A stretch of DNA of 64,000 bases from Candidatus Poribacteria bacterium. Lineage in GTDB: Bacteria > Poribacteria > WGA-4E > WGA-3G. This document shows, one piece after another, positions 1,775 to 64,000 of this stretch. Every line of letters starts with the position of its first letter. Within the stretch, counting starts at the first letter, position 1. The notes below the pieces were generated by a model that did not search any database, was not told the origin of the DNA, and saw only the letters and a program-made list of their open reading frames with translations. Position numbers and translations under genes: made by a program. Location: contig OZ240248.1 of NCBI GenBank assembly GCA_965198235.1, positions 288,001-352,000 of the forward strand, written 5' to 3'.

Positions 1775-1880
1775 ATTTTTAACTATGGCCCCCTGGACTG
1801 CCCTCCAAATGTAAAGCAAAGACAAATTATGCCATTTAAGGCATAATTTCATTACGGGCAGGTTTCTGGTTAATTCGCGG
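1775..1880 (-). repeat. Host repeat E1, filled allele carrying a 39-bp hairpin insert (1807-1845)
   Basis: Minus strand TTAACCAGAAACCTGCCCGTAATGAAAT-[insert]-GGAGGGCAG..CCATAGTTAAAAAT; homologous to 7233-7300 and 45985-46094. Confidence 0.85.
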
Positions 1881-2777: not shown

Positions 2778-2898
2778 CTGAGTGCCTCCTTTCTGTTTCT
2801 GCCATTGTAGCACACCGATCTGTTTGGTTCAAGCATTGCTGACATCCACAAAACACGAAAACCAATTGACAGGCACCGAGCAATTTGGTATAAAGAAG

Positions 2899-2997
2899 CA
2901 GTCAGTCATCAGCGATCAGAAGAATACCCATCAGCAATCAGCAAAAAGGTTTCCGTCAGCGGGTCCGCCGACAGCCGACGGCTGAAGGCTGATAGCC
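2899..2997. repeat. Degenerate heptamer tandem repeats in inverted arrangement
   Basis: CAGTCAT/CAGCGAT/CAGCAAT on the left; CCGACAG/CCGACGG/CTGAAGG/CTGATAG on the right. Confidence 0.65.
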
Positions 2998-3018
2998 AAT
3001 ACGTAGGAGAAATGCATC

Positions 3019-7232: not shown

Positions 7233-7300
7233 ATTTTTTAATTTATGGCTGCTTGCTCTGCCCTCCATTTCATTTCGGGCAGGTTTCTGGTTAAGTCGCG
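7233..7300 (-). repeat. Host repeat E1, empty allele
   Basis: TTAACCAGAAACCTGCCCGAAATGAAATGGAGGGCAG..CCATAAATTAAAAAAT, i.e. 1775-1880 without the insert. Confidence 0.85.
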
Positions 7301-9444: not shown

Positions 9445-10272
9445 TCACGACTTATCTGACAGCGAACTACCATCCCGATACGAGAAAACCAATGGCAGGT
9501 GCGCATCATCCGCCAACACATCACCGGCCTCCAATTTTCCGAACACTTCGTCGGGTAGTGCGCTCCTTTTACCATTGAACGTGGCATCCTCCGGCATAAA
9601 AAGCATGGCAAACGCACGGCGAGGGCCCGTCGTCATATTGGGTCCTGCCGCATGGGCGACCATCCCGCTGATGAATACGCCGGCTCCCGCTTTCATCTCA
9701 GCGGCGTAGGGTTCAATCTCCGCCCACTGTGGATATTCGCGGAACAGCTCGCCGATTCCTGCTTCCCCAAGACTGCCACCAACCTCAAAGCCGCTCGTCT
9801 TATGTGTGCCGGGCAGAAAATACAAACAGCCGTTCTGAACGGTTGTATCGTCGAGTGCTACCCAGAACATGATCGCCTGATGTGAATAAAACGGGTCGTA
9901 TGGATTATCAACATGGAAGTTCGTTGGATTTGCCCACGGTTGCTTAACCATCGCGTGGTCGTGATACAACCGCACACCCGAAGTGCCGGCGAGGTCTGCC
10001 GCCAACTTACCCAACTCAGGGGCGAGAATCAACTGTTTAATCTTCTCGCTCGTCTTCCACAAATTGACACATTGAACGAAGACGTTCTTGTAGTAACCGT
10101 CTTCTCCGCCTTGATTGTGATAGGTATCAGGTCGGCTCACATGCTGCGCGATAGCCTCGTCAACTGCATTCTGCCACGACGACAACTCGGAACCTTTCAG
10201 GAAGTCGTCAATAATCAGAAATCCATTTTCACGGTAAAATTCAATCTGATCGCTCGTCCGTTGTGTATTCAT
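9445..10272 (-). CDS. PhyH-family dioxygenase
   Basis: FYRENGFL, FHVD, WVALDD, NGCLYFLPGTH, AHAAGPN, RRA; start MNTQR. Confidence 0.9.
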   Translation of the reverse strand: MNTQRTSDQIEFYRENGFLIIDDFLKGSELSSWQNAVDEAIAQHVSRPDTYHNQGGEDGYYKNVFVQCVNLWKTSEKIKQLILAPELGKLAADLAGTSGVRLYHDHAMVKQPWANPTNFHVDNPYDPFYSHQAIMFWVALDDTTVQNGCLYFLPGTHKTSGFEVGGSLGEAGIGELFREYPQWAEIEPYAAEMKAGAGVFISGMVAHAAGPNMTTGPRRAFAMLFMPEDATFNGKRSALPDEVFGKLEAGDVLADDAHLPLVFSYRDGSSLSDKS

Positions 10273-10360
10273 CTTTTTAACTATTAGGTTTCTGGCCTGC
10301 CTTCCAAATGTAAAGCATTCTCGCTGCGAAGCAAAATTATGCCATAAGGCATAATTACAG
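10273..10360 (-). repeat. E1-type repeat with the hairpin insert, itself containing a 16-bp GCGAAGC micro-repeat
   Basis: CCAAATGTAAAGCA-TTCTCGCTGCGAAGCA-AAATTATGCC versus canonical CCAAATGTAAAGCA-AAGAC-AAATTATGCC. Confidence 0.8.
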
Positions 10361-13990: not shown

Positions 13991-14150
13991 TAACCCAAGT
14001 TGCTACTAAAAAATTCTGATGTTTTTGCTTGGGTATTTCTGCGGATTCCAACGAGGGATCTTAGGCATTTTCTTCACCCCAGCGGGGTGATATGTTTATA
14101 GAAACCGGGATCTACAACTTCTTGCAATCCAGCGGAGTGCTATGTATCTA
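13991..14150. mobile_element. Partial MITE-like element (left end TAACCCAAGTTGCTAC) with R3 repeat and REP-like doublet
   Basis: Same left end and doublet as 15611 and 27848; right inverted repeat not found. Confidence 0.6.
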
Positions 14151-15610: not shown

Positions 15611-15828
15611 CAACTCAAGTTGCTACCTATAGAAAATTCATAAGTTTTCTGTAAAAGTTGAGGGATTCACGCCTTCGCTCCAGAGGAGCGGTATGTCTAT
15701 AGAAAATTGTGATCTCCTATCTTCCGCTCCAGCGGAGCGGTATGTGTGGGGAAAGATAAACAGTGATAGAACATTCCGAATCTTTTGCGCAGACGATATT
15801 TTCCCAGTTTAGGTGGCAACTTGCGTTA
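15611..15828. mobile_element. MITE-like element with 16-18 bp terminal inverted repeats and internal REP-like doublet
   Basis: CAACTCAAGTTGCTACCTA ... TAGGTGGCAACTTGCGTTA, flanked by the direct repeat TTATAC. Confidence 0.75.
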
Positions 15829-17040: not shown

Positions 17041-17070
17041 AAATCCAATATCCCTCTGAGTAGGCAAAAA

Positions 17071-24454: not shown

Positions 24455-25879
24455 CTATAAACACCACACATACGGACCGGGACCTGTCCGGCAAACCATC
24501 TCGGCGATCTGCAGGCGCATCTGTGCGATGCGATTTTCGTGTTCGGGGCGATTGGCAACATTTCGCATTTCGTCCGGGTCTGTCTTTAGGTCGTACAGTT
24601 CATCAATATCAAAGCGGTTCCGAATATACTTCCAGTGACCGTCGATAATCATCACATGCGCTGCAAGTTCTTCTGGTTCGTTCGCGTCGTGATAAATCGC
24701 ATTGAGACTGGCGATTTCAGCGAAGATGGGTTGACGTTTGGGCTCTTGCCCGTTCAAAATCGCCTCCGCAACGGAACGCCCATCAATTGGCGTTTCTGGG
24801 ACTTGATCTGCGAAACTCAGTAAAGTCGGCATCAGATCCACGCCCGCCAGAGGGGTCGTGACGCGAAAACCGGACGGCAAATGGTTCTGCCATGAGAGCA
24901 GACACGGCACACGTACCGACCCCTCATACATCAAACACTTCTCAGTGTAGCCGTGGTCGCCGAGCAATTCGCCGTGATCACTCATAAAAGCGACAACTGT
25001 ATTTGTTCCTTCAAGCGCATTTAATAGACGTCCGACTTGGTCGTCGATGTGTGTGATGAGGGCGTAGTAGTAAGTCATCATTCGGCGGAATTCAGCCTCA
25101 GTGACCGTGGAAGGGATGCGGAATTTTCCTCGCTTTTGAAATTCGGGCTTCCCATCGAGCGGGTCGCGCAACGAGGGAGGTAGCGGCATATCTTCTTCGC
25201 GATAGTGCTCCAGAAGGTCCGGCGGCACCAAGACAAGAGGGTGTGGGTCTTTGATACTCGCAAATAGGAAGAACGGGGCATCCTCTTGCTGCTGAACAAA
25301 TTCGAGCGAACGATCGATTGTCCACGTTGTGCGTTGCTGTCGAGGATCTGTGATTGTGCCGAATGCCAAGATATTTCCGTACTGCGTCATTCCCGGTGCA
25401 TCTGAGAGATAGAGGTTTTCAACCCCTTCCGTTTCAAAATAATCAAAGAGTGGGTCTGGATAGTCACCAAGATAACGATAGGTACACCAAAAATCGGAAA
25501 ATCCGTGTTGTGGGCGATGGTCGCCCCCCAAATGCCACGGTCCGACGATACCACAACGATAGCCAGCCCGTTTGAGCACATCGCCAATAGTGGTCCGGTC
25601 GTGAGGCAGGTAGCCGCCGAACTCACCCATTCTTTTGGGTCCGTAATTTCGCAGTTGTAAGTGGGCATGTGGATAGAGTCCAGTCAACCAACTTGCGCGT
25701 GCAGGTGAGCAGACCGGCGATGCACAGTAAGCGTTTTCAAAGCGGACACCATTCGCCGCCAGCCGATCCAGATGGGGTGTTTGAACGACCGGGCTACCCG
25801 CGAACCCGGCAGCGTCCCACCGCATCTGATCACACATAATGAGTACGATATTGGGTCGAGATGTCGTCGTGCTACCCAT
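24455..25879 (-). CDS. Sulfatase (formylglycine-dependent)
   Basis: PNIVLIMCDQ, CSPARASWLTG, SDHGE, ELYDL. Confidence 0.92.
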   Translation of the reverse strand: MGSTTTSRPNIVLIMCDQMRWDAAGFAGSPVVQTPHLDRLAANGVRFENAYCASPVCSPARASWLTGLYPHAHLQLRNYGPKRMGEFGGYLPHDRTTIGDVLKRAGYRCGIVGPWHLGGDHRPQHGFSDFWCTYRYLGDYPDPLFDYFETEGVENLYLSDAPGMTQYGNILAFGTITDPRQQRTTWTIDRSLEFVQQQEDAPFFLFASIKDPHPLVLVPPDLLEHYREEDMPLPPSLRDPLDGKPEFQKRGKFRIPSTVTEAEFRRMMTYYYALITHIDDQVGRLLNALEGTNTVVAFMSDHGELLGDHGYTEKCLMYEGSVRVPCLLSWQNHLPSGFRVTTPLAGVDLMPTLLSFADQVPETPIDGRSVAEAILNGQEPKRQPIFAEIASLNAIYHDANEPEELAAHVMIIDGHWKYIRNRFDIDELYDLKTDPDEMRNVANRPEHENRIAQMRLQIAEMVCRTGPGPYVWCL

Positions 25880-25907
25880 TTTTTTTAATTTTACCTTGCG
25901 GTTCGGT
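25880..25907 (-). repeat. E2 repeat terminus abutting ATG
   Basis: ACCGAACCGCAAGGTAAAATTAAAAAAA-ATG; homologous at 30772, 48868, 57728. Confidence 0.75.
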
Positions 25908-25989
25908 GAGGTGAGTTGAATGAACGACGATCCTCTCCGTATATCCGCCTGCACCGTTTTTGGTGTCCAAAAATTTTGGATGCTATCTA

Positions 25990-26373
25990 TTACGGAGCGA
26001 AACTCGATCGCAGTTTGATGCCCCAGCGTCCCGCTTCGTGGGTTAAGACATAGAGCGACTCGTAGGCGGCAATGACTGTGCCATCGGCGCGATAGCGTGT
26101 GAATTGTGTGTCAACATGGACTTTGGACGCTGTGGCATGGACAATGTTACGTCTGTCCCAACCGCTATGGTGCCAGCCCCTTGCGGTCAGGTTCTTTCTT
26201 ATTCTCTCCACATCCTGCTCACCCGGTTTGTTGAGGATTCGCATGTTGCCAGAAGCGAGGCGGTAGTGCGGAAAGTGAAACGTTTTTTCCCATGCAACTA
26301 TATCGAGACGATTAAATGCCTCCATCCACGTGTCAAGAACTTCTATGATTTCAGCTTCGATTTTTTCTTTCAT
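25990..26373 (-). CDS. NTF2/SnoaL-like fold protein
   Basis: WMEAFN, HFPH, KVHV..FTRY, SLYVLT..GRWGI. Confidence 0.75.
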   Translation of the reverse strand: MKEKIEAEIIEVLDTWMEAFNRLDIVAWEKTFHFPHYRLASGNMRILNKPGEQDVERIRKNLTARGWHHSGWDRRNIVHATASKVHVDTQFTRYRADGTVIAAYESLYVLTHEAGRWGIKLRSSFAP

Positions 26374-27847: not shown

Positions 27848-28110
27848 TAGCCCAAGTTGCCACTTTCAAATGAGGGAGATTGTTTTCATCGAGTTTTAGG
27901 GTTCTTCGGATTTTCATCGGCGATTGAGGTATAAAAAATCACGAGTCGCTTATTCCAAAGCCCCAGAGGGGCGACATGTGTGTAGAAACGCGACCATCCC
28001 CAGGTCTATAAAGCCCCAGAGGGGCGACATGTGTATCGTTGACATCTGTAATTGTCCAATACAAAGTGTCCTTGAATATCTATAACTTTCTTAGGTAGTA
28101 ACTTGGATTA
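27848..28110. mobile_element. MITE-like element with CCAAGTT inverted ends and REP-like doublet
   Basis: TAGCCCAAGTTGCCAC ... GTAGTAACTTGGATTA; AAAGCCCCAGAGGGGCGACATGTGT occurs twice. Confidence 0.75.
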
Positions 28111-29709: not shown

Positions 29710-30771
29710 TTAAACTTCGCCGTCCCAATAACTCAGGCTTGGGTCCTTACGATAAATCTTCCCAACGACATAAGGCAAGACCTTGTTAGAATCCGGGTAT
29801 TCACTCACATCGTGCGGTGTAGTCGTGCCGAGAATGAATAACGTGACCGGCGCATCGCTGCTATTTACAAACTTATGTGCCCCGATTGTGCCAGGTGGAA
29901 ACGCGAGGAAGTCACCCTCATTTACCTCTACATCACCTCGCGGGGTTTTGAGTGTGCAGGCACCCTTCATAACATAGCACATCTCCTCCCCGAAATTGTG
30001 GAAATGCATTGGGAAACTCATCTTACCGGGTTGTAGCCGAATCACGCGATACCCTAAATTCTTGCCACCGATGAGCGGGTCTATGTCTTTATCCTCAAAG
30101 TCGTAAGGGTGTGGCGCGTTTTTATGCTGCCACGCGATTTCATCGATATGAATGCGGTTGATGTAGATGTCGCGCCGCGCTTGCAGGCAATCAACGAGGT
30201 ATTGGCGCGCATCTTTAAAAATGGAGTGCCCGTCACCGACGAGGATTGTATTGAATCGGAGTGCCAAAATTTTGCGCAATTCAAGTGCGGCTTTCGGAGG
30301 ATCGCTCAGTTTACCATCGGCGAGCAGCGTCAGCGCGCCCATCGGTTCACCGACCACGAGATCCCCGAACAGGACGGTCTGTTTCTCTGGAAAATAGAGC
30401 GCGATTTCGCCAGGGCTTTTTCCGTGACTGAGATGGATGGCATGTAAACCGGGAACAATTGCCTCACGGTCCTGAACCGTTCGGGTCGGTGTGATGTTCA
30501 GCGCATCGGCATCGGCATCATGCACAATCACGTCGGCACCTGTCCATTCCTGAAAGGCAGCGGCTTCGCGTTCATGATCGGCGTTGGTCAGAACGATCAA
30601 CTTCGCGCCGCCGAGTGCTTTCAGGTGTTCTCGGTCCTCATCGGACATTGGCACCGGGTCTATTAGGATATTTCCATCCGGACCCACCCACAAATGTCCA
30701 TTAAAGTCTATCTGCCGTTCCGGACTAAAGACTCCCCAACTGTACATATCTTCAAAAATCAAGCGTTTCAT
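29710..30771 (-). CDS. Metallo-beta-lactamase-fold plus cupin fusion protein
   Basis: LIDP, LTNADHER, GKSPG, GD, VGDG in the N-half; PMHFHNFGEE..AHKFVN cupin in the C-half. Confidence 0.78.
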   Translation of the reverse strand: MKRLIFEDMYSWGVFSPERQIDFNGHLWVGPDGNILIDPVPMSDEDREHLKALGGAKLIVLTNADHEREAAAFQEWTGADVIVHDADADALNITPTRTVQDREAIVPGLHAIHLSHGKSPGEIALYFPEKQTVLFGDLVVGEPMGALTLLADGKLSDPPKAALELRKILALRFNTILVGDGHSIFKDARQYLVDCLQARRDIYINRIHIDEIAWQHKNAPHPYDFEDKDIDPLIGGKNLGYRVIRLQPGKMSFPMHFHNFGEEMCYVMKGACTLKTPRGDVEVNEGDFLAFPPGTIGAHKFVNSSDAPVTLFILGTTTPHDVSEYPDSNKVLPYVVGKIYRKDPSLSYWDGEV

Positions 30772-30856
30772 TTTTAAATTATTCCTTGCGGTTAAGGCAC
30801 ACTGCTTTGGAATGTAACGGTTTTTTCCGAAACCCGCTTTCCACTTCGTTTCAAGC
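30772..30856 (-). repeat. E2 repeat abutting ATG
   Basis: GCTTGAAACGAAGTGGAAAGC ... ACCGCAAGGAATAATTTAAAA-ATG. Confidence 0.75.
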
Positions 30857-30882
30857 TATGTAATTTGACTTCTTTTAATTAC

Positions 30883-31416
30883 TCATTGTTGTTTTCCCTT
30901 TGAGACGAATCCGTAGACCTCAATTTCGTGTATGAAAGCTTTACCTAACGTCATTTGCGGCACAATGACACCGCGCCTCGGATCATACTGATTGGCTTTC
31001 TTTTCATCATCGGTAGTGCCCGTGATGTAGATGCGGATGGCATCCGCCACAGCACCACTAACCCGTCCATCAATAACCGGACTCTGATTATATTCGATCT
31101 GTTGAATTGCGCGCCAATGTCCTTCGCCTTCTAATTTTTGGTATATTATCGCTCTTGTAATGTTAGTCCCACGGATAATAATGCGGTGGATGGCTTTGCG
31201 AGCCGGTAAGTTTAGATGGATCCACTGTCCATCAGCGTATCCTTTCGTTTTTACATCATCGTCTATCATTTCTGGTGAGGTGCAGGTGACACCTTCTGTG
31301 ACGGCGTAGTTGTAAAGTTCCTGCGGTTCAAAAATCATCTGCAGCACCTTAGATTGGCATCCTAAGAGGACTGTAACCGCGCAAATTACTGGAAAGATAA
31401 AGAGGTAACGTCGCAT
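30883..31416 (-). CDS. Predicted lipoprotein, discoidin/F5-8-like; tandem paralog 1
   Basis: Lipobox LLGC; C-terminal IHEIEVYG. Confidence 0.75.
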   Translation of the reverse strand: MRRYLFIFPVICAVTVLLGCQSKVLQMIFEPQELYNYAVTEGVTCTSPEMIDDDVKTKGYADGQWIHLNLPARKAIHRIIIRGTNITRAIIYQKLEGEGHWRAIQQIEYNQSPVIDGRVSGAVADAIRIYITGTTDDEKKANQYDPRRGVIVPQMTLGKAFIHEIEVYGFVSKGKQQ

Positions 31417-31527: not shown

Positions 31528-32061
31528 CTATGGGGACCCTTCCTTTGAAACGAGTCCATAAACCTCAAATTCATGTATAAAAGCTCTGCCCAACGCTATC
31601 TGTGGTATGATTAGACCGCGCCTTGCATCATACCGATTGGCTTTCTTTCTATCATCGGCGGTGCCACTGATATAGACACGGATGGCATCCGTCACGACAC
31701 CGCTGACGCGCATTTTAATGATTGGACTCTCGTTGTTCTGGATTTGCATAATGGCACGCCAACGTCCTTCACCTTCCAATTTCTCGTATATCATAGCATT
31801 TATAATATTGGTCCCATGGATGGTAATCCGGTGAATTGCCTTTTGTGTTGGCAAGTTTAGGTGAATCCACCGTCCATCAGCATATCCCTTTGTCTTCACA
31901 TCGCCATCTATCATTTCTGGTGAGGTGCAGGTGACCCCTTCCATGGCGGCGTAGTTGTAAAGTTCCTGTGGTTCAATCAGCATCTGCAGTGCCTTGGATT
32001 GGCATCCTGCCGAAAGCGTGACAGCACAGAACACTGTGAAAATAGAAAGGTAACGTTTCAT
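31528..32061 (-). CDS. Predicted lipoprotein, discoidin/F5-8-like; tandem paralog 2
   Basis: Lipobox SAGC; same length (177 aa) and colinear with paralog 1. Confidence 0.75.
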   Translation of the reverse strand: MKRYLSIFTVFCAVTLSAGCQSKALQMLIEPQELYNYAAMEGVTCTSPEMIDGDVKTKGYADGRWIHLNLPTQKAIHRITIHGTNIINAMIYEKLEGEGRWRAIMQIQNNESPIIKMRVSGVVTDAIRVYISGTADDRKKANRYDARRGLIIPQIALGRAFIHEFEVYGLVSKEGSP

Positions 32062-45984: not shown

Positions 45985-46094
45985 ATTAACCGGAAACCTG
46001 CAAGTTAACCATCAACTCGTGCTTTAACATTTATAACGGAGGCGAGTTGATGGTTAAAACGGACGCAGCAGACCAGGAGCCCATAAATTAAAAA
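45985..46094 (+). repeat. Host repeat E1 carrying a 53-bp palindromic element (46005-46057); abuts mazG-like ATG
   Basis: ATTAACCGGAAACCTGC..[TTAACCATCAACTCG...CGAGTTGATGGTTAA]..CCCATAAATTAAAAA-ATG. Confidence 0.8.
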
Positions 46095-46379
46095 ATGACA
46101 ATTGAAGCGTTTCAGAAACAGATTGAAGATATCTATTACACACGCGATGTTGAGCGCGGGGTGCCTCTCACCTTCACATGGTTCGTTGAAGAAGTCGGTG
46201 AGTTGGCAAAAGAGATCCGCAAACAGCCACAAGACTTGACGCGACTGCGCGAGGAATTCGCCGATGTTTTTGCATGGCTCGCTACATTAGCAAGCCTACT
46301 CGGTATTTCTCTTGAGGATGCCGCGAAAATCTACGCAGAGGGCTGCCCGAAGTGTAGCGCAACCCCCTGTCGCTGTTAG
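46095..46379 (+). CDS. MazG-like nucleotide pyrophosphohydrolase
   Basis: EEVGELA, EEFADV, C-terminal CPKC..PCRC. Confidence 0.88.
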   Translation: MTIEAFQKQIEDIYYTRDVERGVPLTFTWFVEEVGELAKEIRKQPQDLTRLREEFADVFAWLATLASLLGISLEDAAKIYAEGCPKCSATPCRC

Positions 46380-46392
46380 CTTATGGGTGAAC

Positions 46393-47673
46393 TTAGTTCC
46401 CGTTCAAGAATCGATCGAAGTTGCCGCCGAACAGGTTATTGACATCCCGTCCAATCTCTGCCGAAGTCAATGTCCACCCGACATCAAGAAGTGTTTGGTA
46501 TTTTTCTACCAGGACCTCTGCGATAATCTGCCGCGAGTGTTTCCATTTGTAAACGAGTTGATCCAAAATTCGCGCATCGGAGTGTTGGGGGATGACACTC
46601 AAACCGAGTAATTCAATCCGTTCTCGCGTGATCTCCTCAATGACGCTCGGATTGTTCATAAACCACCAGCATCCAAATATCATCAGATTTTTGAATTTCC
46701 GTCCAATCACACACAACTCATGTTGATTTTCGCGCGACAGGAGCGTAACGAGAAACTTATTGTCAGGATTTTCACGGAGCAGCGTTTCCAGACTCGTCAA
46801 GTCGGCTTTTCCGCTTCCATCGCCTGCCATCTGAAGTTGTGGATTCACCGCACGCTTCACACCAATCATGAGCGCGAATGGAACGTTAAATTCACGGGAG
46901 ATCGGTAGTATACAGTTATCAAACAACCGTCCAAGAACACCGTCATCGGGGTATTGGAAATCGGGTGGGAGAGAGACCGCCATGTATTTTGGGTTCATCC
47001 GCTGAATCCATGTCTCTAAAAATCGACGAACTTCTTTGTAGGTTTTCTCCGTTGATAGACTGGGATCGACATCGTAGCCGAGACCCCTGAGATGTTCGTA
47101 ACCGACTTCTTCATAGGTATTGATGAGGACATCCATCCGAAGCGCTGCTTCAAAGCGTGTGTCGCCAGTGTCGCCGGATTGCCACACCGGTGCCTCTGCC
47201 GAATCAAAGGGGTCGTTCGTCATCACCACTTTAGAGACTTTCGCACGTTCAAAAACAGTGTCAATGAAGGCATCGACGGTGGTATCCGCAAAATAGGCAC
47301 GGTAGTCCTGTAGGTTTCGCGAACTAACATCCAAGCCTAACGCATCTAAAGTCGTCACAATGCCGCGGCACGCCTCGCTCAGCGGTGAATTTTCAATGAA
47401 CAGCGTCTGCCAAATCAGTTCTGCCTGTTCCGCCTTTGACATCCCCCAAAATTGCTGATACGAAACATCAGATTTGCGGAATACTTCAGCAATGAGGTAG
47501 TGATAGGTCAGCAGTTCATCAATACCCCATAGCAACAACTCACCGAATGGCGGACTAAAGAGGTGTGTGTGAATATCTGTGACACTTTGCGTGTCCACGG
47601 CATCTAAAACAGCGGTTTTCAATTCATCCGCGGTTTTAATCTCCTGTGTGTGGTTTGATTCAGAAACGTTCAT
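46393..47673 (-). CDS. Uronate (glucuronate) isomerase, Bh0493-like subgroup
   Basis: DIHTHLF, LLTYHYL, MTNDPFD, FGCWWF, QHSDAR. Confidence 0.85.
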   Translation of the reverse strand: MNVSESNHTQEIKTADELKTAVLDAVDTQSVTDIHTHLFSPPFGELLLWGIDELLTYHYLIAEVFRKSDVSYQQFWGMSKAEQAELIWQTLFIENSPLSEACRGIVTTLDALGLDVSSRNLQDYRAYFADTTVDAFIDTVFERAKVSKVVMTNDPFDSAEAPVWQSGDTGDTRFEAALRMDVLINTYEEVGYEHLRGLGYDVDPSLSTEKTYKEVRRFLETWIQRMNPKYMAVSLPPDFQYPDDGVLGRLFDNCILPISREFNVPFALMIGVKRAVNPQLQMAGDGSGKADLTSLETLLRENPDNKFLVTLLSRENQHELCVIGRKFKNLMIFGCWWFMNNPSVIEEITRERIELLGLSVIPQHSDARILDQLVYKWKHSRQIIAEVLVEKYQTLLDVGWTLTSAEIGRDVNNLFGGNFDRFLNGN

Positions 47674-48799: not shown

Positions 48800-48887
48800 C
48801 AAGCCTGAAATGAAATGGAAGGCGACTCGTACACAAAAACATCAAATAATCAGACACCTATACTTATCCGCAAGGTAAAATTAAAAA
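48800..48887 (+). repeat. E2 repeat abutting the secG stop codon
   Basis: CAAGCCTGAAATGAAATGGAAGGCGACTC ... CCGCAAGGTAAAATTAAAAA. Confidence 0.75.
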
Positions 48888-49307
48888 CTATTCTGTGCTG
48901 TCTGTACCACCACTGTCAAGTTCCGTCTTTGATGCGTCGTCAGCAGCGTCTCCACTGCCGCCATCTGTAGTCGTTTCAACGCTTCCTTCGTCTGTGGTGT
49001 CAACAGGTTCGGTTGTGGCTTCCTGTGTTGTTTCCTGCTCGAGCGGTGTGAGTGCCCCGCCGCCATCTTCGCCATAGAAACGCATCAGGAACAGGGAGAT
49101 AACCATGAACCCGATAGCAAGCCACGTCGTTAGTTTACTAAGGAAGGTCGCGGCACCGCGCCCTCCGAGAACAGACTGCATTTCCGCGCCACCAAATGCG
49201 CTTGATGAGAGCCCTTCACCCTTGCTGTCCTGTAACAAAATAATCAGCGTCAAGACGACGCAGACCGGCACGAAGATAAACACTACAAAACCGATAATAA
49301 TTTCCAT
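48888..49307 (-). CDS. secG: Preprotein translocase subunit SecG
   Basis: ILLQDSKGEGLSSSAFGG, FLSKLT; downstream of tpiA. Confidence 0.9.
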   Translation of the reverse strand: MEIIIGFVVFIFVPVCVVLTLIILLQDSKGEGLSSSAFGGAEMQSVLGGRGAATFLSKLTTWLAIGFMVISLFLMRFYGEDGGGALTPLEQETTQEATTEPVDTTDEGSVETTTDGGSGDAADDASKTELDSGGTDSTE

Positions 49308-49341
49308 CTGAGGGTTTCCTCCTATTAAAAATGGCTGTCGG

Positions 49342-50097
49342 CTATTCTGCATTTTTCACGATTTGTGCGAACGATTCCGCCTCAAGACTTGCGCCGCCAA
49401 CGAGTGCACCGTCTACATCGGGCTGCGCCATGAGTTCCGCTGCATTCTCCGGTTTAACGCTGCCACCGTATTGAATACATATCTGCGACGCGACTTCTGC
49501 CGAGTGCCCGTTCGTTAGCAAGCCTCGAATAAAGTTATGGACTTCCTGTGCTTGGGCAGGCGTGGCTGTCTTCCCAGTGCCGATAGCCCAAACCGGTTCA
49601 TAAGCGATGACGCAGGACGAAAGGTCAGCGGCGGATAAGCCAGCAATGCCGCCCGTAACGTGGCTCTTAATCACTGCTTCTGTTTGTCCAGCTTCCCGTT
49701 CTTCGAGTTGCTCACCGACGCAGATAATTGGCTTTAAGCCGTGCGCTAACGCCGCTTTCACTTTTTGGTTGACGCTGTCATTCGTCTCACCGAAATATTG
49801 GCGCCGTTCCGAATGCCCGATAATGACGTAATCACACCCGGTATCTTTCAGCATTGGCGCGGAGACTTCGCCGGTAAATGCCCCGCCATCCTCCCAATAG
49901 ACATCTTGAGCGGCGAGACGAATGTTGCTGCCCCCTATGGCATCACTGACAGCGGAGAGCGCAGTAAACGGCGGTGCAACGATGACTTCAACGCCGGTGG
50001 CATCCGCAACTAATGCTTTTAACGCCGTTGTGAGCGCGACCGCCTCTGAAATCGTTTTGTTCAGTTTCCAATTTCCCGCAATGATAGGTATTCGCAT
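49342..50097 (-). CDS. tpiA: Triose-phosphate isomerase
   Basis: [34 protein letters not shown]. Confidence 0.98.
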
Positions 50098-50270
50098 ATT
50101 TTTAACTATTTTTTAAACTATTAACTTTGGTTAATTCCAACCCGTCCCAGGGGTTCAGAGGGTTTTGACTTCACCGGCAACCATTGTGGAACGAAATTTT
50201 GCCCACACGCGGCAAAATTTGTCTTTGCTTTACATTTGGAACAATGCCCAGATTTCCATAGTTAAAAAAG
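50098..50270. mobile_element. Repeat mosaic with TTTTTAACTAT/ATAGTTAAAAA inverted ends and filled hairpin core
   Basis: CATTGT-GGAACGAAAT-[40-bp insert 50198-50237]-GGA-ACAATG; homologous to 51391-51586. Confidence 0.75.
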
Positions 50271-50367
50271 CAGCAGGACATTCTCACCGCGAAGCAGACG
50301 CACTGCGGATTTTACCGAGGCATCCCTCTGCCAAGGCGTTCCGACGGCTCCCGTTAGGGAAACCAGA

Positions 50368-51372
50368 TTAAAAAACCTGGGCAACGAGCTCAACGAGACG
50401 GTTGGAGTAGCCCCACTCGTTATCATACCATGAAAGGACTTTAATCAACCCATCATCAATCACTTTGGTGAAGGGAGCGTCGAGAACGGAGGAGAGTTTG
50501 TTCCCGTTGAAATCCGATGAAACGAGGTCGAGTTCGGAATAGCCGAGAATCCCGTCCAAATTGCCTTCTGCTGCTTCTTTCAGTGCTGCGTTGACCGCTT
50601 CGGCACTCGGTCTCTGCTTGAGATCGACGGTGAGATCGACGACGGAGACGTTCGGTGTCGGTACACGGATTGCGAATCCATCCAGTTTGCCGTTCAATTC
50701 TGGCAGGACTTTTCCAACTGCGACAGCGGCACCAGTTGTCGTCGGAATCATCGAGAGCGTTGCTGCCCGTGCGCGGCGCATGTCGGAGTGCGGGAAATCA
50801 TGAATCCGCTGGTCGCCGGTGTAGGCATGGACGGTTGTCATTAAGCCGCTCTCAATTCCAAACTCTTCATGCAGTACCTTTGCAACGGGTGCAAGGCAGT
50901 TCGTCGTACACGAGGCATTAGAAATGACATGATGTTCTGCTTTGTCATATTTATCGTCATTGACACCGATCACAATCGTGATGTCCTCACCCTTCGCGGG
51001 GGCGGAGATGACCACTTTTTTCGCACCACCGGCGGTGATATGTTTTTCAGCGTCTTCCCGCTCTGTAAAGAAACCGGTGGATTCGATAACGACATCCGCA
51101 CCGAGTTCACCCCACGGTAGATTGCCGGGATCTCGTTCGGCGAGAACCTGTATCTCTTTCCCGTTTACCACCAATCCGTTTTCTGTGGCAGTGATGTCAT
51201 CGGACAAGATGCCGTGAATGGAGTCGTACTGGAGAAGGTGTGCGAGTGTCTCCGGGCTCGTTAAATCGTTGATAGCCACGAAGTCTATATCTAACGCGGG
51301 GTTCTGCAATGCCGCTCGAAAAGCGTTCCTACCGATCCGACCAAAACCATTAATACCTACTTTAGTTGACAT
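50368..51372 (-). CDS. gap: Type I glyceraldehyde-3-phosphate dehydrogenase
   Basis: [29 protein letters not shown]. Confidence 0.98.
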
Positions 51373-51390
51373 AGGACAAATAAATTCCTT

Positions 51391-51586
51391 TTTTTAAACT
51401 ATTAACTCTGAGCATCCTTCCACTACATTTTACGATGGTTGTCGGTACAGTTAGAAACCTTTTGAAACCTAAAACAGGCTCATAACTTAGATGAAAACCG
51501 TTGCAGAATGAAATTATGCCTTAAATGGCATAATTTGTCTTTGCTTTACATTTGGAGCAACGCCCAGATTCCCATAGTTAGAAAAT
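51391..51586. mobile_element. Repeat mosaic with inverted ends and filled hairpin core
   Basis: CGTTGC-AGAATGAAAT-[39-bp insert 51515-51553, identical to 1807-1845]-GGA-GCAACG. Confidence 0.78.
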
Positions 51587-51819
51587 CCTTTGTAAATATT
51601 GTGCCGTTACAGGGCTTTCATTTAACAGCAAGTTTTAGAAACCTGCAAGCCACATTGACAGAAACGAACATGCGGGGCTATTCACAATAGGCTTGCAAGC
51701 GATGCCCCTTGATTTGCTATTATCTAAGTTTCACGATTTACGTCTTTTTAATTATACCCCAAAGTGTAGTAAATTGCAAGTGCGTTGTTAAGTCCATAGC
51801 CGTTCTGAAGCAATTTGAC

Positions 51820-51848
51820 TTGACAATTCGGGCGGTTTCAGATACCCT
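51820..51848 (+). promoter_or_regulatory. Putative promoter 6 bp before the ATG (leaderless configuration)
   Basis: TTGACA-17-TACCCT-6-ATG, no SD. Confidence 0.4.
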
Positions 51849-51854
51849 ATTGGT

Positions 51855-52676
51855 ATGTCAACAAACACCCCCAAAAATGCGATTCAACCGACCGGAAGTT
51901 TCCGTGCCATTCCTGTTGCAGTGCCAAAGAATCTCACTAATGTTCGGATCATCCTCTCTGAACCGCGTGAGCCGGGGAACATCGGCTCCGTCGCCAGAGT
52001 TGTAAAGGGGATGGGACTCTCGCAACTCTATTTGGTGAACCCTGTCCCGTTTCGTGAGGTCGATGCGGCGTGGTACATGGCACATGGCGCGAAGGATATT
52101 CTTGAAAATTGCCACGTCGTTCCCGAACTGAAAAACGCACTCGATGGTGTCCAGTACCTGGTAGGGACAACGCACCGTCGTCGTGATGTGCGCCTACCGC
52201 AGCCTGTACCTGCACGGGAAGCCGCAGAGACGATCGCTACAATTTCGCAGGACAAACCGGTCGCGCTGCTGTTTGGACGTGAAGACTTCGGCTTGTCTAC
52301 CCATCAGATGAGTCTTTGCCAGTTGACTGCAAGCGTTCCGATGGCTACAAAAAACCCGTCTCTGAATTTGGCACAGGCAGTCCAAATTTTCGCTTATGAG
52401 GTCTTCATTGCAAGCCTTGGCGAGTACCCTCCCTCCGAGATCGATTATGCCGAAGTGAACGCATTGGAAGAGTTCTACGGGCGTGTGACTCGGTTGTTGG
52501 ATAAGGTAGGGGTGTCGCCGTATAACCGAGACTGGGAGACGTATCTGAAGTCGTTGCGGCGTGTCTTCTCCCGTGCCCCTTTAGAAGCACGCGACATCGC
52601 TACGCTGGACATAATTTTCTCTACGACGTTTCGGCACATTGAGCGGCTTGAGAAGAAATTAGAACCTACGCAATAA
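51855..52676 (+). CDS. trmJ: TrmJ/LasT family SPOUT RNA methyltransferase
   Basis: PGNIGSVAR, LLFGREDFGL, PSLNLAQAV. Confidence 0.88.
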   Translation: MSTNTPKNAIQPTGSFRAIPVAVPKNLTNVRIILSEPREPGNIGSVARVVKGMGLSQLYLVNPVPFREVDAAWYMAHGAKDILENCHVVPELKNALDGVQYLVGTTHRRRDVRLPQPVPAREAAETIATISQDKPVALLFGREDFGLSTHQMSLCQLTASVPMATKNPSLNLAQAVQIFAYEVFIASLGEYPPSEIDYAEVNALEEFYGRVTRLLDKVGVSPYNRDWETYLKSLRRVFSRAPLEARDIATLDIIFSTTFRHIERLEKKLEPTQ

Positions 52677-54424: not shown

Positions 54425-54508
54425 AATTCTGGGATGGACTGATGTATCATATATGTAGAGAACCTGAGTAGTCCTGTAATGACGAAACGTTTATAGCGTA
54501 GGCAAAAA

Positions 54509-57634: not shown

Positions 57635-57663
57635 CATTTGTTTTTTTGAATTTCCAGGACGAG

Positions 57664-57752
57664 CAAGCCCGAAACGAAGTGGAGGGCGACTCTACGGAAA
57701 TAAACGTCAATGCGCTAACCCGCTTGACCGAACCGCAAGGAAAATTAGAAAA
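57664..57752 (+). repeat. E2 repeat abutting the aspS ATG
   Basis: CAAGCCCGAAACGAAGTGGAGGGCGACTC ... ACCGAACCGCAAGGAAAATTAGAAAA-ATG. Confidence 0.78.
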
Positions 57753-61506: not shown

Positions 61507-63741
61507 TTGAACACGCAAAACGAACCGAATCCACAGCAGCCAGCACTTAGCGTCACATCAATTCTCGCAATTATCAGCGTCGTGCTCGCCACGGGATGGA
61601 TAGCCTTTGCCTATTACAAAGGCACTGCCAACAGCAGCCGAATACTGTTGCTGCATCCAGTCGTGCCGATGCTGCTGATTGTCCTGCTCATCCGCGTTTA
61701 TCGCTGGATCGACCTAAAGAGCATAGTGATTCTTGAAATACTGATGATCGCTGTGTGGGTTTTTATACGTTTGTTGGGCGTGTTGACCCCTTTCATTTTA
61801 GGGTTTGGCTTCGCTTATATCTTTAGGTTTCTCTGGAATGCTCTCCCATTCAAAGCCAGATACCTACGCGGACTCGCGACGGTAATAATTGTCCTTGTGT
61901 GCGGCAGTTTGCTTTTCTACACTGGGAAACAGGTTAGTAAGCAAGCAACCCAGATGGGGAGTGGGTTACTAAAGTTTTATCATGAGATTGTTCTGCCTTA
62001 TGTCGTTGGTGAGACGTTTGAGGCGGTCGCTATCAGTGTCGATTTTCCTACTATTGAGGATGATGTAGCAGGAAGAAACAATCAAACGACTCCAGCAGAA
62101 ACATTCTACCTTGGTACGAACCACGGCATTTATAAAATTCAACAGGATGCAGAGAGAGAGTTTGTTCGTATTGGTATCACAAACGGCGTGCTTCTCGGCA
62201 AACCGATACAAGCACTTGCAGCAGCTGGAAACGTTATCTACGCTGGTACGCAGAGTGGGTTATATCGGTATTACAAGGCATTGCCTGCTGATGTCACTGA
62301 AGCGATTGACGGTGATGTAACAGACATCCAAAACGTCACACCGAGAATATGGCACAAGGTACAAGCGACCCCTTTCGATACTCTTTCCGTTCAAGCGATC
62401 AACGTTCCGAATTGGAATAATACCCAGATTTATGTTGGAACACAAAAAGGACTTTACAGCAGTAAGAATTTAGGAAAAACATGGCGTGAGGTCGCCCCTC
62501 AAATTTATAGTGAAAGGTCCATCGTCAGTATTGTTTCTATTGTGGATACGAATGGTGATAGGACAATTTATGTCGCCAGTACAGCGATAATTGATGCGAT
62601 GCCCTCAGAACGGATAGTTCCCATGCCTACGGTCGCAACAGTGCATTGGTACCTGGAGGATTCCGCTCTTGAGTGGAATCCGCTTCCTTCTATAACGGAT
62701 TCGGTTTATGCACTGGCAAGTGGAGGTAAAACGTGGATTGTCCCGCAAGCCTCTATAGGCTTGCGCTTAGAAGACCCCTCACAGGTGTTTGATATTGAAC
62801 TGTACGCCGGCACGCCCGATGGTCTCTATGAATGGCATCGTCTTGGCACATGGCGAAAGACGGAAGGTACTGCTGCAGTCTCGTTGTTAGCGTCGGCACC
62901 TTCTGGTGTATACATCGGTAATGGAACCGCTATCCTGCATCGTGCCGTTCCTACAGAGGGATGGCAGCCATTTGCTACACGGAACGAAGGGATTAGTTAC
63001 ACCTATAGGGACGAGCCTATTGTCCAGCAGGTGAAAACATACTTGACCGAAAGAATTCCAACAATCGCCCAAACCGGTGGTGAGGCTATCAGGGAAGGGG
63101 TTCAGTTCGCGGGTTCGATCGCTTTTGGGTTTGGCGGGTTTTTAGCCACAGTATCACTCGCGTTCATTGTGTTTGTCTATGCAAGCCAGTCGTTTGACAA
63201 TTATTTCCGCAGTTTCATCACGCTGGTCCCTGAACTTCATCGTGAAACTGTCAAGACCTACCTGCGCGAAATTGATAGGAATCTACAACAGTTCCTAAAA
63301 GGACAAGTAACCGTCATCGCGATTGTGTCAGTGGTCTCCTGTATCGCGTACAGCATTATCGGTGTGCCGTTCGCATTGGTTATTGGGGTACTCGCCGGAA
63401 TCTGTAACGCTATACCGACCTTTGGACCCTTTATCGGCGGCGGTTTCGCCTATGTGGCGATGCTAATGGGGCTGGCGGCTGGGGATTTCGGTATAATTGA
63501 TTTCCTCATTCGCAGTGCATTCGTGTTGGGTGCCATTCTTGGCATTCAGATGCTTGACAACTCATTGATTTCACCTAAAATTATGAGCACCGCTGTTAAT
63601 GTAGATCCGCTGCTCATTATGTTTGCTGTGATTGTTGGGGCAGCTGTACTCGGATTTTGGGGTGTATTGCTTGCAATTCCTATTATTGTTGTGGTAAAAT
63701 CGGTTATTGCCGTTTCTCAATCTTTAAATGATCGAATCTGA
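61507..63741 (+). CDS. AI-2E (PerM) family transporter with inserted beta-propeller-like domain
   Basis: LTPFILG..AY, FLKGQ, NAIPTFGP, DNSLISPKIM, GVLLAIP; central YxGT..GLY repeats. Confidence 0.82.
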   Translation: MNTQNEPNPQQPALSVTSILAIISVVLATGWIAFAYYKGTANSSRILLLHPVVPMLLIVLLIRVYRWIDLKSIVILEILMIAVWVFIRLLGVLTPFILGFGFAYIFRFLWNALPFKARYLRGLATVIIVLVCGSLLFYTGKQVSKQATQMGSGLLKFYHEIVLPYVVGETFEAVAISVDFPTIEDDVAGRNNQTTPAETFYLGTNHGIYKIQQDAEREFVRIGITNGVLLGKPIQALAAAGNVIYAGTQSGLYRYYKALPADVTEAIDGDVTDIQNVTPRIWHKVQATPFDTLSVQAINVPNWNNTQIYVGTQKGLYSSKNLGKTWREVAPQIYSERSIVSIVSIVDTNGDRTIYVASTAIIDAMPSERIVPMPTVATVHWYLEDSALEWNPLPSITDSVYALASGGKTWIVPQASIGLRLEDPSQVFDIELYAGTPDGLYEWHRLGTWRKTEGTAAVSLLASAPSGVYIGNGTAILHRAVPTEGWQPFATRNEGISYTYRDEPIVQQVKTYLTERIPTIAQTGGEAIREGVQFAGSIAFGFGGFLATVSLAFIVFVYASQSFDNYFRSFITLVPELHRETVKTYLREIDRNLQQFLKGQVTVIAIVSVVSCIAYSIIGVPFALVIGVLAGICNAIPTFGPFIGGGFAYVAMLMGLAAGDFGIIDFLIRSAFVLGAILGIQMLDNSLISPKIMSTAVNVDPLLIMFAVIVGAAVLGFWGVLLAIPIIVVVKSVIAVSQSLNDRI

Positions 63742-63758
63742 GCACCGTTCCATTACAT

Positions 63759-63934
63759 TTTTCTAACTATGGGAATCTGTTAACCATCGAAGAAATCCGC
63801 AGAAACACCCAAGCAAAAACCCTCGTGCTTTAACATCTATAACGGAGTCGAGTTGATGGTTAAACTGCTCCACTACGTTGAAGAAACATCGGATTTAGTC
63901 TGGGAATAGACTAAATCCATTCCTTGTATTACAT
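63759..63934. repeat. Repeat mosaic: E1 terminus, palindromic element interrupted by R3, R5 hairpin
   Basis: TTCTAACTATGGGAATCTG; TTAACCATC-[R3]-CTCGTGCTTT..GAGTTGATGGTTAA; GGATTTAGTCT..AGACTAAATCC. Confidence 0.8.
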
Positions 63935-64000
63935 TGCAAAAACCCCCGTCCCAGTAACGGGCGGGGACCCCGGTTTTCAGTGAATTCCAACCCGCTCCAG

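Follow-up and report, generated by a model that had tools for sequence, protein, structure and literature searches.

In the genome of a sponge symbiont assigned to Candidatus Poribacteria, the ends of two kinds of intergenic repeats, denoted E1 and E2, abut start codons exactly and non-randomly, at about 266 genes. Comparison with relatives indicates that these genes, tpiA and aspS among them, have lost the native SD-containing spacer and kept their start codon. The elements are modular, one-ended intergenic repeats in which a hairpin and a middle part precede a constant A/T end of 12 nt, and the E1/E2 family is essentially confined to a single genus of Poribacteria. There is, in our estimate, an even chance that these repeats act as portable, unstructured, A-rich leaders that would support initiation of translation independently of an SD.

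The window analysed here is the whole stretch of 64,000 nucleotides (C1:288001-352000, forward strand) taken from this genome, which consists of 2 contigs with a total of 5.17 Mb (5.12 Mb + 44 kb), has a G+C content of 48% and is 96% complete. The gene models are our own crude ORF calls, with a long ORF defined as one of at least 80 codons, and the SD and tail classes were assigned by simple regular expressions.

Coincidence of repeat ends with start codons

The sequence-only reading of the window placed E1-type ends directly before the ATG codons at 1774, 10272, 46095 and 50097, and E2 ends directly before those at 25879, 30771 and 57753 as well as against the secG stop (48887); all these sequences are where they were said to be (Table 1). 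At the nine named starts, the sequence given lies directly 5' of the ATG in 9/9 cases, and when the nine upstream regions were compared with the genome using BLAST, eight of them yielded 32-121 hits. The remaining proposal, that GTAGGCAAAAA directly preceding the ATG codons at 17071 and 54509 belongs to the same phenomenon, holds only in part. The 11-mer is present at both places (at 17060-17070, it precedes a putative start), but is not a repeat end because it has 2 copies in the whole genome and the DNA upstream of 54509 is homologous to non-repeat sequence in G054, a congener that matches neither the E1 nor the E2 pattern, yet is not free of tail-like sequences.

Table 1. Repeat elements and adjoining features in the window (coordinates are those of the window)
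Feature	Position	Strand	Description
E1-type module, amidohydrolase	1775..1853	-	GGCATAATTTGTCTTTGCTTTACATTTGGA...CCATAGTTAAAAAT; end ..ATAGTTAAAAAT-ATG; adjoins ATG (1772-1774)
E1-type module, PhyH	10273..10342	-	end ..ATAGTTAAAAAG-ATG; adjoins ATG (10270-10272)
Sulfatase start codon	25877..25879	-	product 474 aa
E2-type insert, sulfatase	25880..25985	-	between stop of upstream gene (25990-25992) and sulfatase ATG; core CCGCAAGG + 14 nt, then ATG (25879)
Sulfatase E2, tail	25880-25893	-	TAAAATTAAAAAAA
Sulfatase E2, core	25894-25901	-	CCGCAAGG
Full E2, MBL-cupin	30772..30882	-	occupies whole 111-nt spacer before ATG (30769-30771); core CCGCAAGG + 12 nt, then ATG (30771)
MBL-cupin E2, tail	30772-30783	-
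MBL-cupin E2, core	30784-30791	-
MBL-cupin E2, hairpin loop	30840-30852	-
Repeat modules, mazG-like	46005..46094	+	end CCCATAAATTAAAAA; E1-type end ..CATAAATTAAAAA-ATG; adjoin ATG (46095)
E2 copy facing 3' end of secG	48807..48887	+	tail ends at 48887; secG stop codon begins at 48888
secG-side E2, hairpin loop	48807-48819	+
secG-side E2, core	48868-48875	+
270-nt repeat mosaic, gap-tpiA	50098..50367	-	between gap stop and tpiA ATG (50095-50097); end TAGTTTAAAAAATAGTTAAAAAT; E1-type end ..TAGTTAAAAAT-ATG (start 50097)
Antisense E1 copy within gap-tpiA mosaic	50211-50269	+
E1-type copy without adjoining start	51507..51585	+	tail TAGTTAGAAAA
GTAGGCAAAAA before ATG at 54509	54498..54508	+	native A-rich DNA, no repeat end
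E2, aspS	57635..57752	+	between stop of upstream gene and aspS ATG; core CCGCAAGG + 12 nt, then ATG (57753)
aspS E2, hairpin loop	57671-57683	+
aspS E2, core	57733-57740	+
aspS E2, tail	57741-57752	+

The gene names of the named loci agree with the results of a Pfam search, with domain models that start at residues 1-13 in the sulfatase, MBL-cupin, TIM and PhyH proteins (residue 9 of the 25879 product for the Sulfatase model, residue 13 for PhyH). The sulfatase orthologues align from residue 1 in 4/4 cases found, with 89-92% identity. Several of the named ORFs remain open in the 5' direction through the repeats, so that the longest-ORF start is misleading at these loci: extension of the ORFs gives starts that are too far upstream, at 1852 (for 1774), 10584 (10272), 25954 (25879) and 57588 (57753). 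Gene callers that extend ORFs through E1/E2 elements will accordingly misplace the starts.

Genome-wide, there are 417 occurrences of the core CCGCAAGG, compared with about 133 expected from the composition, and 240 of these are followed by an A/T-rich 12-mer tail; these 240 are the E2 copies. A long-ORF start is located 9-16 nt after the core in 114 of the 240 E2 copies, and at exactly 12 nt in 82; in the control set of CCGCAAGG occurrences without the tail, such a start is found at 9-16 nt in 17 of 177 cases. The 114 start codons include 98 ATG, 9 TTG and 7 GTG, and among starts of the tail class in the set with unambiguous starts, 61 of 63 are ATG. An ATG occupies offset 12 in 80 of the 240 copies, and 75 of these 80 open ORFs of at least 82 codons; among the 160 copies that lack a long-ORF start at offset 12, 155 have no ATG there, and hence, the ATG is not part of the repeat. 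In other Poribacteria genomes, which are kin of this one rather than independent samples, an open ATG is found at offset 12 in 50 of 125 E2 matches.

The same sharp positioning is seen with the pattern A[AGT]TTAAAA: of its 1149 sites, 241 meet a long-ORF ATG at -1..+2, and each of the offsets beyond contributes 1-9 cases, which amounts to the enrichment at offset 0-1 that the sequence-only reading demanded. Altogether, 266 genes begin directly behind a wAwAwT-TAAAAA tail, this set being defined by a tail-plus-ATG regular expression as distinct starts of ORFs of at least 80 codons. The E1 hairpins (n=224) are less uniformly placed, with 68 abutting a start, 53 followed by a start 4-59 nt on, 88 without one within 60 nt and 15 tailless.

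The named genes were further said to lack AGGAG. At the working distance (-14..-5), this holds genome-wide, with an SD-like tetramer in only 10 of the 266 starts; farther upstream it does not, given that CCAGGAGCC, mostly from E1, is present at -26..-13 in 83 of the 266.

Anatomy of the elements

The E2 end has the form CCGCAAGG-wAwAwTwAAAAA, and the E1 end the form ..CCAGGAGCC-CATAGTTAAAAAA. A complete E2 consists of a hairpin with a 4-bp stem, GGATCTACGGAAAGG, a middle part of about 30 nt, ACCGAA-CCGCAAGG and the tail, with sequence conservation extending at least 70 nt upstream of the core, whereas E1 is a hairpin with a 6-bp stem that is followed by (C)CCAG(G/A).GCC-CATAGTTAAAAAA or ..AATAAATTAAAAA. 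The commonest 5' module carries the 13-nt loop G-N-A-A-Y-G-N-A-R-T-G-G-A, with 387 matches in the genome, flanked by at least 5 consecutive pairs in 224 cases, by 4 in 85, by 3 in 41 and by 2 or fewer in 37. The stem positions covary, with up to four or five types of pairs; the copies were selected for pairing, which biases the paired fraction of the stems but not the variety of pair types. Covariation is also apparent between loop positions 5 and 9 (C-G in 112 copies, T-A in 52, T-G in one). The hairpin can be described as a variable stem of 6 bp, a 3x3 internal loop containing G.A and A.G, a further 2 bp and a GNA triloop. Alternative hairpins, with the loop CAACAACGG and others, can substitute for the first hairpin. 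An Rfam search at the gathering score detected no family in the window, although four copies of the hairpin lie there. The GGA motifs in CCGCAAGGA or in CCAGGAG were considered as potential CsrA sites, a candidate that was dropped because CsrA is not encoded.

The E2 copies are single-ended, with 31 tandem neighbours in the same direction and, within 600 nt, 3 outward-facing and 2 inward-facing pairs (n=240); in some of the tandem arrays, the initial 20-25 nt of the gene are duplicated as well. The tail varies by substitutions only, and a position weight matrix gives A at -11 in 97%, A at -9 in 95% and T at -7 in 97% of the copies. The wAwAwT at -12..-7 thus resembles a -10 hexamer, with the ATG 7 nt after the T and mostly A at -12; the counterpart in E1 is TAGTTA or TAAATT at -11..-6. 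Some E1 variants contain a terminator-like hairpin and a T-rich run about 45 nt before the ATG. A sigma-70-type scan produced no hit and no -35 box or extended -10 at any tail, whereas canonical TTGACA-17-TATAAT promoters are visible elsewhere in the window; inspection of the E2 middle part by eye only yielded no match to sigma-54-like or ECF-like boxes.

The start regions of the tail-abutting genes are less structured than those of SD genes (mean MFE at -20..+20 of -2.1 vs -3.9 kcal/mol, p=7e-21), and the unpaired probability at -12..+3 is 0.67 compared with 0.45. The opposite is the case for the upstream 60 nt, which are more structured at the tail-abutting genes (-11.7 vs -9.8).

Displacement of SD-containing spacers at conserved start codons

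At the gap-tpiA junction, 29/29 other Poribacteria loci (genera g1 and g2) have a short spacer between the gap stop and the same ATG, the spacer being mostly 11 nt long, of the tgg[ag]aaggact type and SD-like in most loci; the 270-nt repeat mosaic is found only in the present genome. For aspS, the 75 closest loci in public genomes were compared (71-96% protein identity over the best segment). The stop of the upstream gene is conserved throughout, and it is followed by an SD-like spacer in 39 loci, by an E2 abutting the same ATGTCTCAAGAA in 14, by another hairpin module in 10 and by something else in 6, with 6 loci unplaced. The orthologous aspS tails are not identical: that of L006 has 9 nt, and in L001 and L028 the 'invariant' T is altered. 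The ancestral junctions at gap-tpiA and aspS are operon spacers of 11-25 nt.

The presence of E2 varies locus by locus among the congeners. Before the sulfatase ATG (25879), E2 is found in this genome, G056 and G050, whereas in G054 and G016 the same ATG is preceded by a spacer of the AAAGG type. G054 shares the TAATAGA, which there leads into the 21-nt spacer AAAGGAAA, and the homology between the two genomes stops 4 nt past the upstream stop codon. At the MBL-cupin ATG, E2 is present in this genome, in G056 and, in a 5'-truncated form, in G057, and is absent from G016, G050 and G054. The mazG-like orthologue in G054 has GAAGGAGTCGA before the same ATG.

A systematic comparison with G054, for which 1.6 Mb (32%) of that genome was used, gave orthologue-grade matches for 105 of the 266 tail-abutting genes, and 98 of these align from residue 3 or earlier. 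The G054 start codon is at the same position in 92 of the 98, and the region upstream contains an SD-like tetramer in 57, a tail-like hexamer in 15 and neither in 32; for control genes led by an SD, an SD is found in G054 in 239 of 256 cases. The claim that the native ribosome-binding site was replaced and the start kept is therefore sustained, both by these counts and individually at tpiA, aspS and the sulfatase gene; the retention of the start in 92/98 orthologues also speaks against true starts located elsewhere with an SD of their own.

The upstream flank can be aligned to G054 in 72 of the 92 pairs, and homology ends 2-30 nt before the G054 start in 20 of them. In these 20 cases, the segment before the ATG is gone (an SD-like tetramer is lost with it in 8), and 8-530 nt, with a median of 150, are present instead. 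At three junctions, homology extends to within 2-3 nt of the ATG, and the element separates the old SD, which is intact, from the ATG. At long spacers, a homology break at the upstream stop may merely reflect unalignable non-coding DNA, and no general rule is claimed. AAA occurs no more than 6 nt from the start at 39% of the empty sites in G054 and at 18% of the controls, which would permit insertion or deletion by microhomology with the A-run of the element. In 5 of 92 orthologues, G054 has GTG or TTG where this genome has ATG, compared with 3 of 249 controls.

Genomic context and orientation

The sequence-only reading had the repeat ends targeted to or retained at gene boundaries, and the ends do pile up there. 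The 240 E2 copies divide into 114 that lie against a start, 11 against an SD with a start behind it, 27 with a start 17-58 nt away, 11 against a convergent stop, 13 with such a stop 19-150 nt away, 19 that run into the next module and 45 that are placed otherwise. Thus, 152 copies face a start within 60 nt and 24 face the 3' ends of convergent genes; at least 86 copies have no long-ORF start within 60 nt. Where a copy abuts an SD, this SD starts at offset 11-12 without exception (n=11).

Of 256 tail-abutting genes, 231 (90%) have an upstream neighbour transcribed in the same direction, compared with 69% for the background of all genes with a gap of at least 60 nt (odds ratio 4.6, p=6e-17). In the S10 operon, the rplB-rpsS spacer is filled by E2 fragments, one of which adjoins the rplB stop and the other the rpsS AGGAG; this is one of only 3 back-to-back E2 arrangements. 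One divergent gene pair (C1:2212155- / 2213569+) is separated by a 268-nt gap that consists solely of repeat modules, which suggests that some promoter activity resides within the modules. With respect to replication, E2 copies are split 148:91, hairpins 192:190 and genes 51% 'leading', but the arms assigned by GC skew (cumulative minimum at 0.37 Mb, maximum at 4.05 Mb) are very unequal and these figures are hence unreliable.

Contigs from RNA libraries, in which DNA is possibly present, span the tail-ATG junction at mazG (46031-47010) and tpiA (49158-50219). They are Logan assemblies of four metatranscriptome runs from one study and carry no starts, ends or strand. The depth peaks of these contigs coincide with repeats, and the contig joints are other repeat copies.

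The use of SD in this genome was assessed for 445 ORFs with an unambiguous start, of which 214 have an SD, 44 a tail, 19 both and 168 neither. The 214 SD starts imply that the genome uses SD sequences and that the tail class is a distinct minority; the 168 starts with neither signal imply that SD-independent initiation is normal here. No -10-like signal was detected at the starts, among these 445, that lack both the SD and the tail.

Distribution and relationship to known repeats

Of 10 other genomes of this genus, 9 contain the E2 pattern, in 42-327 copies, with more than 300 in both G050 and G056, and G054 has none. In 50 genomes from 12 other Poribacteria genera, there are 0-2 copies, and the reversed E2 control pattern has a single match across all genomes scanned. 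The strict E1 pattern shows the same restriction to the genus. A scan of one genome per prokaryote species returned, among the 80 matches listed, only records from Poribacteria or from 'uncultured bacterium' MAGs.

A search of the literature on Poribacteria intergenic repeats, mobile promoters and MITEs at start codons turned up no published description of the E1/E2 elements. The nearest described kin appear to be the REP2 repeats of Neisseria and the IR repeats of Borrelia plasmids, followed by putative mobile promoters, and E1/E2 would be a variant of that kind. REP2 and IR are described as dispersed repeats located immediately upstream of ORFs, with two 5' stem-loops, that reach the start codon and carry a promoter, an RBS and the ATG, with 23-26 copies reported for REP2 (Delihas 2011 review, PMC3184786). 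E1/E2, which could be compared with these by that description only, likewise lie immediately upstream of ORFs and reach the start codon, but comprise 240 E2 copies and 224 E1 hairpins and affect 266 genes; they also differ from REP2 as described there in having no SD at working distance, no ATG of their own and covarying stems. As for a promoter, E1/E2 offer a -10-like hexamer without a -35 box, and the divergent pair suggests activity inside the modules. Putative mobile promoters (Matus-Garcia, Nijveen and van Passel) are highly similar upstream regions before unrelated genes in one genome, and their survey covered -150..-50 and so excluded the stretch beside the start codon (PMC3575422). E1/E2 share with them upstream stretches of at least 50 nt that are about 80% or more identical between non-homologous genes; the defining feature here, however, is the last 12 nt together with the loss of the SD, and, in contrast to both REP2 and mobile promoters, comparison with relatives shows that E1/E2 displaced SD spacers at conserved start codons.

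As short, imperfectly palindromic hairpins repeated in hundreds of copies in intergenic DNA, E1/E2 resemble REP/REPIN sequences, from which they differ in that E2 rarely forms inverted pairs, has a long non-palindromic 3' part and lacks a cognate RAYT. The genome contains six Y1_Tnp genes. Three are RAYT-like and flanked by a different REP of their own (GCACTCCAGCGGAGTGC-TATGTCTATAGAAAA), which removes mobilisation of E1/E2 by these RAYTs from consideration, and the other three, each followed by a long open frame, are presumably of the IS200/IS605 type; the hairpin with the 13-nt loop, the mark of full E1/E2, was found near 0 of the 6. Correia elements and MITEs with promoters are small, non-autonomous repeats that influence how neighbouring genes are expressed. 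E1/E2 differ from these in lacking terminal inverted repeats, which disqualifies E2 as a TIR-type MITE. At three clean junctions, no consistent target duplication is apparent, with AGAAAGATG on both sides in one and no duplication in two, the borders being blurred by the A/T-rich ends. A poly(A)-like, TPRT-like retroposition model was discarded because no reverse transcriptase is encoded (no match to RVT_1 in this genome, 96% complete), and integron cassettes with attC-like sites were set aside as well, given that the genes involved are syntenic housekeeping genes in relatives. We therefore do not count the E1/E2 elements among the REP2, REP/REPIN or MITE families, with REP2 judged by its description only.

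Two modes of initiation offer partial parallels. The promoters of leaderless genes in Actinobacteria and Deinococcus have TANNNT 6-7 nt before the ATG, and the E1/E2 tails have a similar -10-like hexamer that ends about 7 nt before the A of the ATG; here, however, the signal occurs only in repeat copies, mostly at operon-internal genes. In Bacteroidetes, initiation is SD-independent and relies on an A-rich 'Kozak-like', unstructured sequence directly before the start codon, whereas in the present genome SD is still used by about half of the genes and the A-rich context is delivered by a repeat.

Possible roles of the repeat ends

Under the leader hypothesis, the elements would be transcribed within polycistronic or leadered mRNAs, and the unpaired A/U-rich end would serve as an SD-independent initiation region that leaves the start codon accessible within an A-rich 'Kozak-like' or S1-type context, while the upstream hairpin would prevent the flanking RNA from pairing with the start region. 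Abutment could have arisen by insertion or recombination at A-runs beside the ATG or SD, or by later deletion between A-runs, with retention of those copies that still permit initiation. The exact, non-random abutment supports this interpretation, as do the conservation of the start codons along with the loss of the SD relative to kin, the scarcity of SDs at -14..-5 and the AAA near the start at the empty G054 sites. It is further favoured by the weaker structure of the start regions compared with SD genes, by the many genes that already initiate without an SD, by the location of elements inside operons (co-directional neighbours, gap-tpiA, rplB-rpsS), by the lack of -35 and extended -10 sequences at the tails given canonical promoters nearby, by the differing lengths and altered T of the aspS tails and, as weak evidence, by the RNA-library contigs that bridge the junction. 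Several observations point the other way. An A-rich leader by itself needs no single-nucleotide placement, yet 82 of 240 copies have the start at exactly 12 nt, and all 11 SDs that E2 copies abut begin at offset 11-12; the alternating invariant positions of the tail coincide with those of a -10 hexamer at -12..-7; modules alone separate a divergent pair; a terminator-like hairpin with a T-rich run is present in some E1 variants; and a leader has no role at the convergent 3' ends into which 24 of 240 E2 copies point.

Several of these observations would fit a promoter for leaderless mRNA, with the tail as the -10 box, RNA polymerase starting at the A of the ATG and 70S ribosomes initiating with no leader at all, so that portable promoters would have made SD-led genes leaderless. 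The invariant A, A and T at -11, -9 and -7 with the ATG 7 nt after the T, the sharp peak at 12 nt, the preference for ATG (98 to 9 TTG and 7 GTG; 61/63 in the tail class), the excess of GTG/TTG in G054 where this genome has ATG, the gap made of modules between divergent genes and the terminator-like hairpins upstream of some E1 tails all agree with such a promoter. Nevertheless, we regard it as unlikely, though not far-fetched: there is no -35, TGn or sigma-70 hit at the tails in a window where canonical promoters exist, -12 is mostly A rather than T, and the lack of a -10-like signal at starts without SD or tail indicates that leaderless use is no habit of this genome. Furthermore, with 90% co-directional neighbours and insertion at operon junctions, the gene would usually not be the first in its unit (a new internal promoter is conceivable), essential aspS tolerates tails of 9-12 nt and an altered invariant T, RNA-library contigs bridge the junction (a weak point), and convergent genes would receive antisense transcription from 24 of 240 copies. 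That the repeats are simply selfish, with abutment a by-product of a preference for A-run sites and of deletion, and the determinants of initiation located inside the coding region, seems quite improbable. The range from 0 to 327 copies among congeners, the many copies without a long-ORF start within 60 nt (at least 86 of 240 E2, 88 of 224 E1 hairpins), the tandem arrays that duplicate flanking gene starts and the copies that abut stops are all as expected of selfish DNA, but the orientation bias (152 of 240 E2 facing a start within 60 nt vs 24 facing a convergent stop) is not, nor is the roughly 3:1 ratio of ATG-abutting (114) to SD-preserving (38) copies, although far more positions would preserve the SD. 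Removal of the SD at essential genes is also at odds with this explanation and implies that the tail must at least be competent for initiation.

The same anatomy, a hairpin followed by an unpaired A/U tract, could constitute an intercistronic processing site or 'punctuation', where an RNase E/Y-type enzyme would cut in the A/U tail, the hairpin would stabilise the 3' end of the upstream cistron, and the downstream leader would be very short or missing. Enrichment between co-directional genes and presence inside operons are compatible with processing, but the copies at convergent stops and the divergent pair are left unexplained, and we consider this role very unlikely. In a bolder version, the elements would be actively aimed at the boundaries of coding sequences, exchanging the entire spacer between the upstream stop and the ATG or SD, and would then act as operon 'punctuation' cassettes, in which the hairpin would protect the 3' end of the upstream cistron, the A/U tract would be open to nucleases, and the downstream start would lack an SD and might be leaderless after processing; we see little likelihood of this. 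If true, it would mean a mobile element with start-codon-directed insertion that rewires initiation at about 6% of the genes, in one genus.

Implications

In a bacterium that uses SD sequences, a repeat family appears to have overwritten the ribosome-binding region of a few hundred genes, housekeeping ones included, with the starts unmoved. The data bear on the ways in which non-coding repeats alter the expression of genes and disrupt operons. The congeners, which range from 0 to more than 300 copies and differ in the presence of the element at the same ATG, amount to a natural experiment that bears on the requirements of SD-independent or leaderless initiation.

Hairpin of the E1 and E2 repeats

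The intergenic repeats E1 and E2 share a hairpin with a conserved 13-nt loop (Table). Across the genome, the inner pair within this loop covaries (C-G in 112 copies, T-A in 52), the G.A and A.G oppositions are invariant, and the stem varies in sequence from copy to copy with its pairing kept: the copies with at least five pairs carry 34 different stem 6-mers, the most frequent of which, CATCGT, occurs 59 times. The hairpin looks like a structure recognised by a protein or RNA; a search of the window, including its four hairpin copies, at the gathering score assigned it to no Rfam family.

Table. Repeat modules and arrays (G000:C1, main contig of the genome under study)
Feature	Location	Strand
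13-nt hairpin loop	window 7264-7276	-
13-nt hairpin loop	window 30840-30852	-
13-nt hairpin loop	window 48807-48819	+
13-nt hairpin loop	window 57671-57683	+
E2 tandem array	G000:C1 1455225-1455479 (0-based)	+
E2 tandem array	G000:C1 1204243-1204461 (0-based)	+
E2 tandem array	G000:C1 3359728-3360093 (0-based)	reverse
Second REP copy (TATGTCTATAGAAAA)	window 14075-14104	
Second REP copy (TATGTCTATAGAAAA)	window 15676-15705	
Second REP copy (TATGTCTATAGAAAA)	window 15725-15754	
Second REP copy (TATGTCTATAGAAAA)	window 27959-27988	
Second REP copy (TATGTCTATAGAAAA)	window 28010-28034	
Second REP with RAYT-like Y1 genes	G000:C1 around 606918, 1898775, 3853757	
CCCTTGC..GCAAGGG module in aspS spacer	L005, L007, L009, L014, L017, L031, L036, L047, L062, L071	

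Other repeats and features

A second REP family, unrelated to the E1/E2 hairpin, consists of a variable-stem hairpin plus TATGTCTATAGAAAA; its inverted copies bracket three genes for RAYT-like Y1 transposases of 159-163 aa, the classic REP-RAYT arrangement, and at locus L026 one copy separates the aspS spacer from the stop codon upstream of it. Summed RNA-library contig depth is very high at window 51338-52004 (865) and 63344-64000 (394) in X1, probably as a sum over many loci and strains, because both bins contain multi-copy repeat modules. Low-complexity CAGC/TGAC-type runs (..cagtcagtcatcagcgatcag.., ..ctgatggctgactgctaacg..), found at window 2814-3018 and in many spacers of the congener G054, recur in the intergenic DNA of both genomes. 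Two tandem 177-aa ORFs (window 30883-31416 and 31528-32061, minus strand; repeat family D1), 75% identical across 300 nt, are apparently a local gene duplication.

E2 insert, tandem arrays and possible origin of E2-like ends

Upstream of the start at 2615739 (G000:C1, 0-based, plus strand), a retained old Shine-Dalgarno sequence (SD; TAAGGAAGAAAG) is followed by an ATG with a 7-codon ORF, a full E2 and the real ATG, with AGAAAGATG at each of the two insert borders. Elsewhere, 3-4 units of E2 lie in tandem arrays, which repeat every 85, 109 and 122 nt; since some units also carry the initial 20-25 nt of the gene downstream, the arrays point to local tandem duplication besides dispersal. The hairpin CCCTTGC..GCAAGGG is a further module, inserted into the SD-to-ATG spacer of aspS at ten loci (Table) (AGGAGGAA-hairpin-GAATATCTAACA-ATG). 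At L062, one of these aspS loci, its 3' arm runs on as GCAAGG-AAAATTAGAAAA, resembling the E2 tail, which hints at the origin or recombination of E2-like ends.
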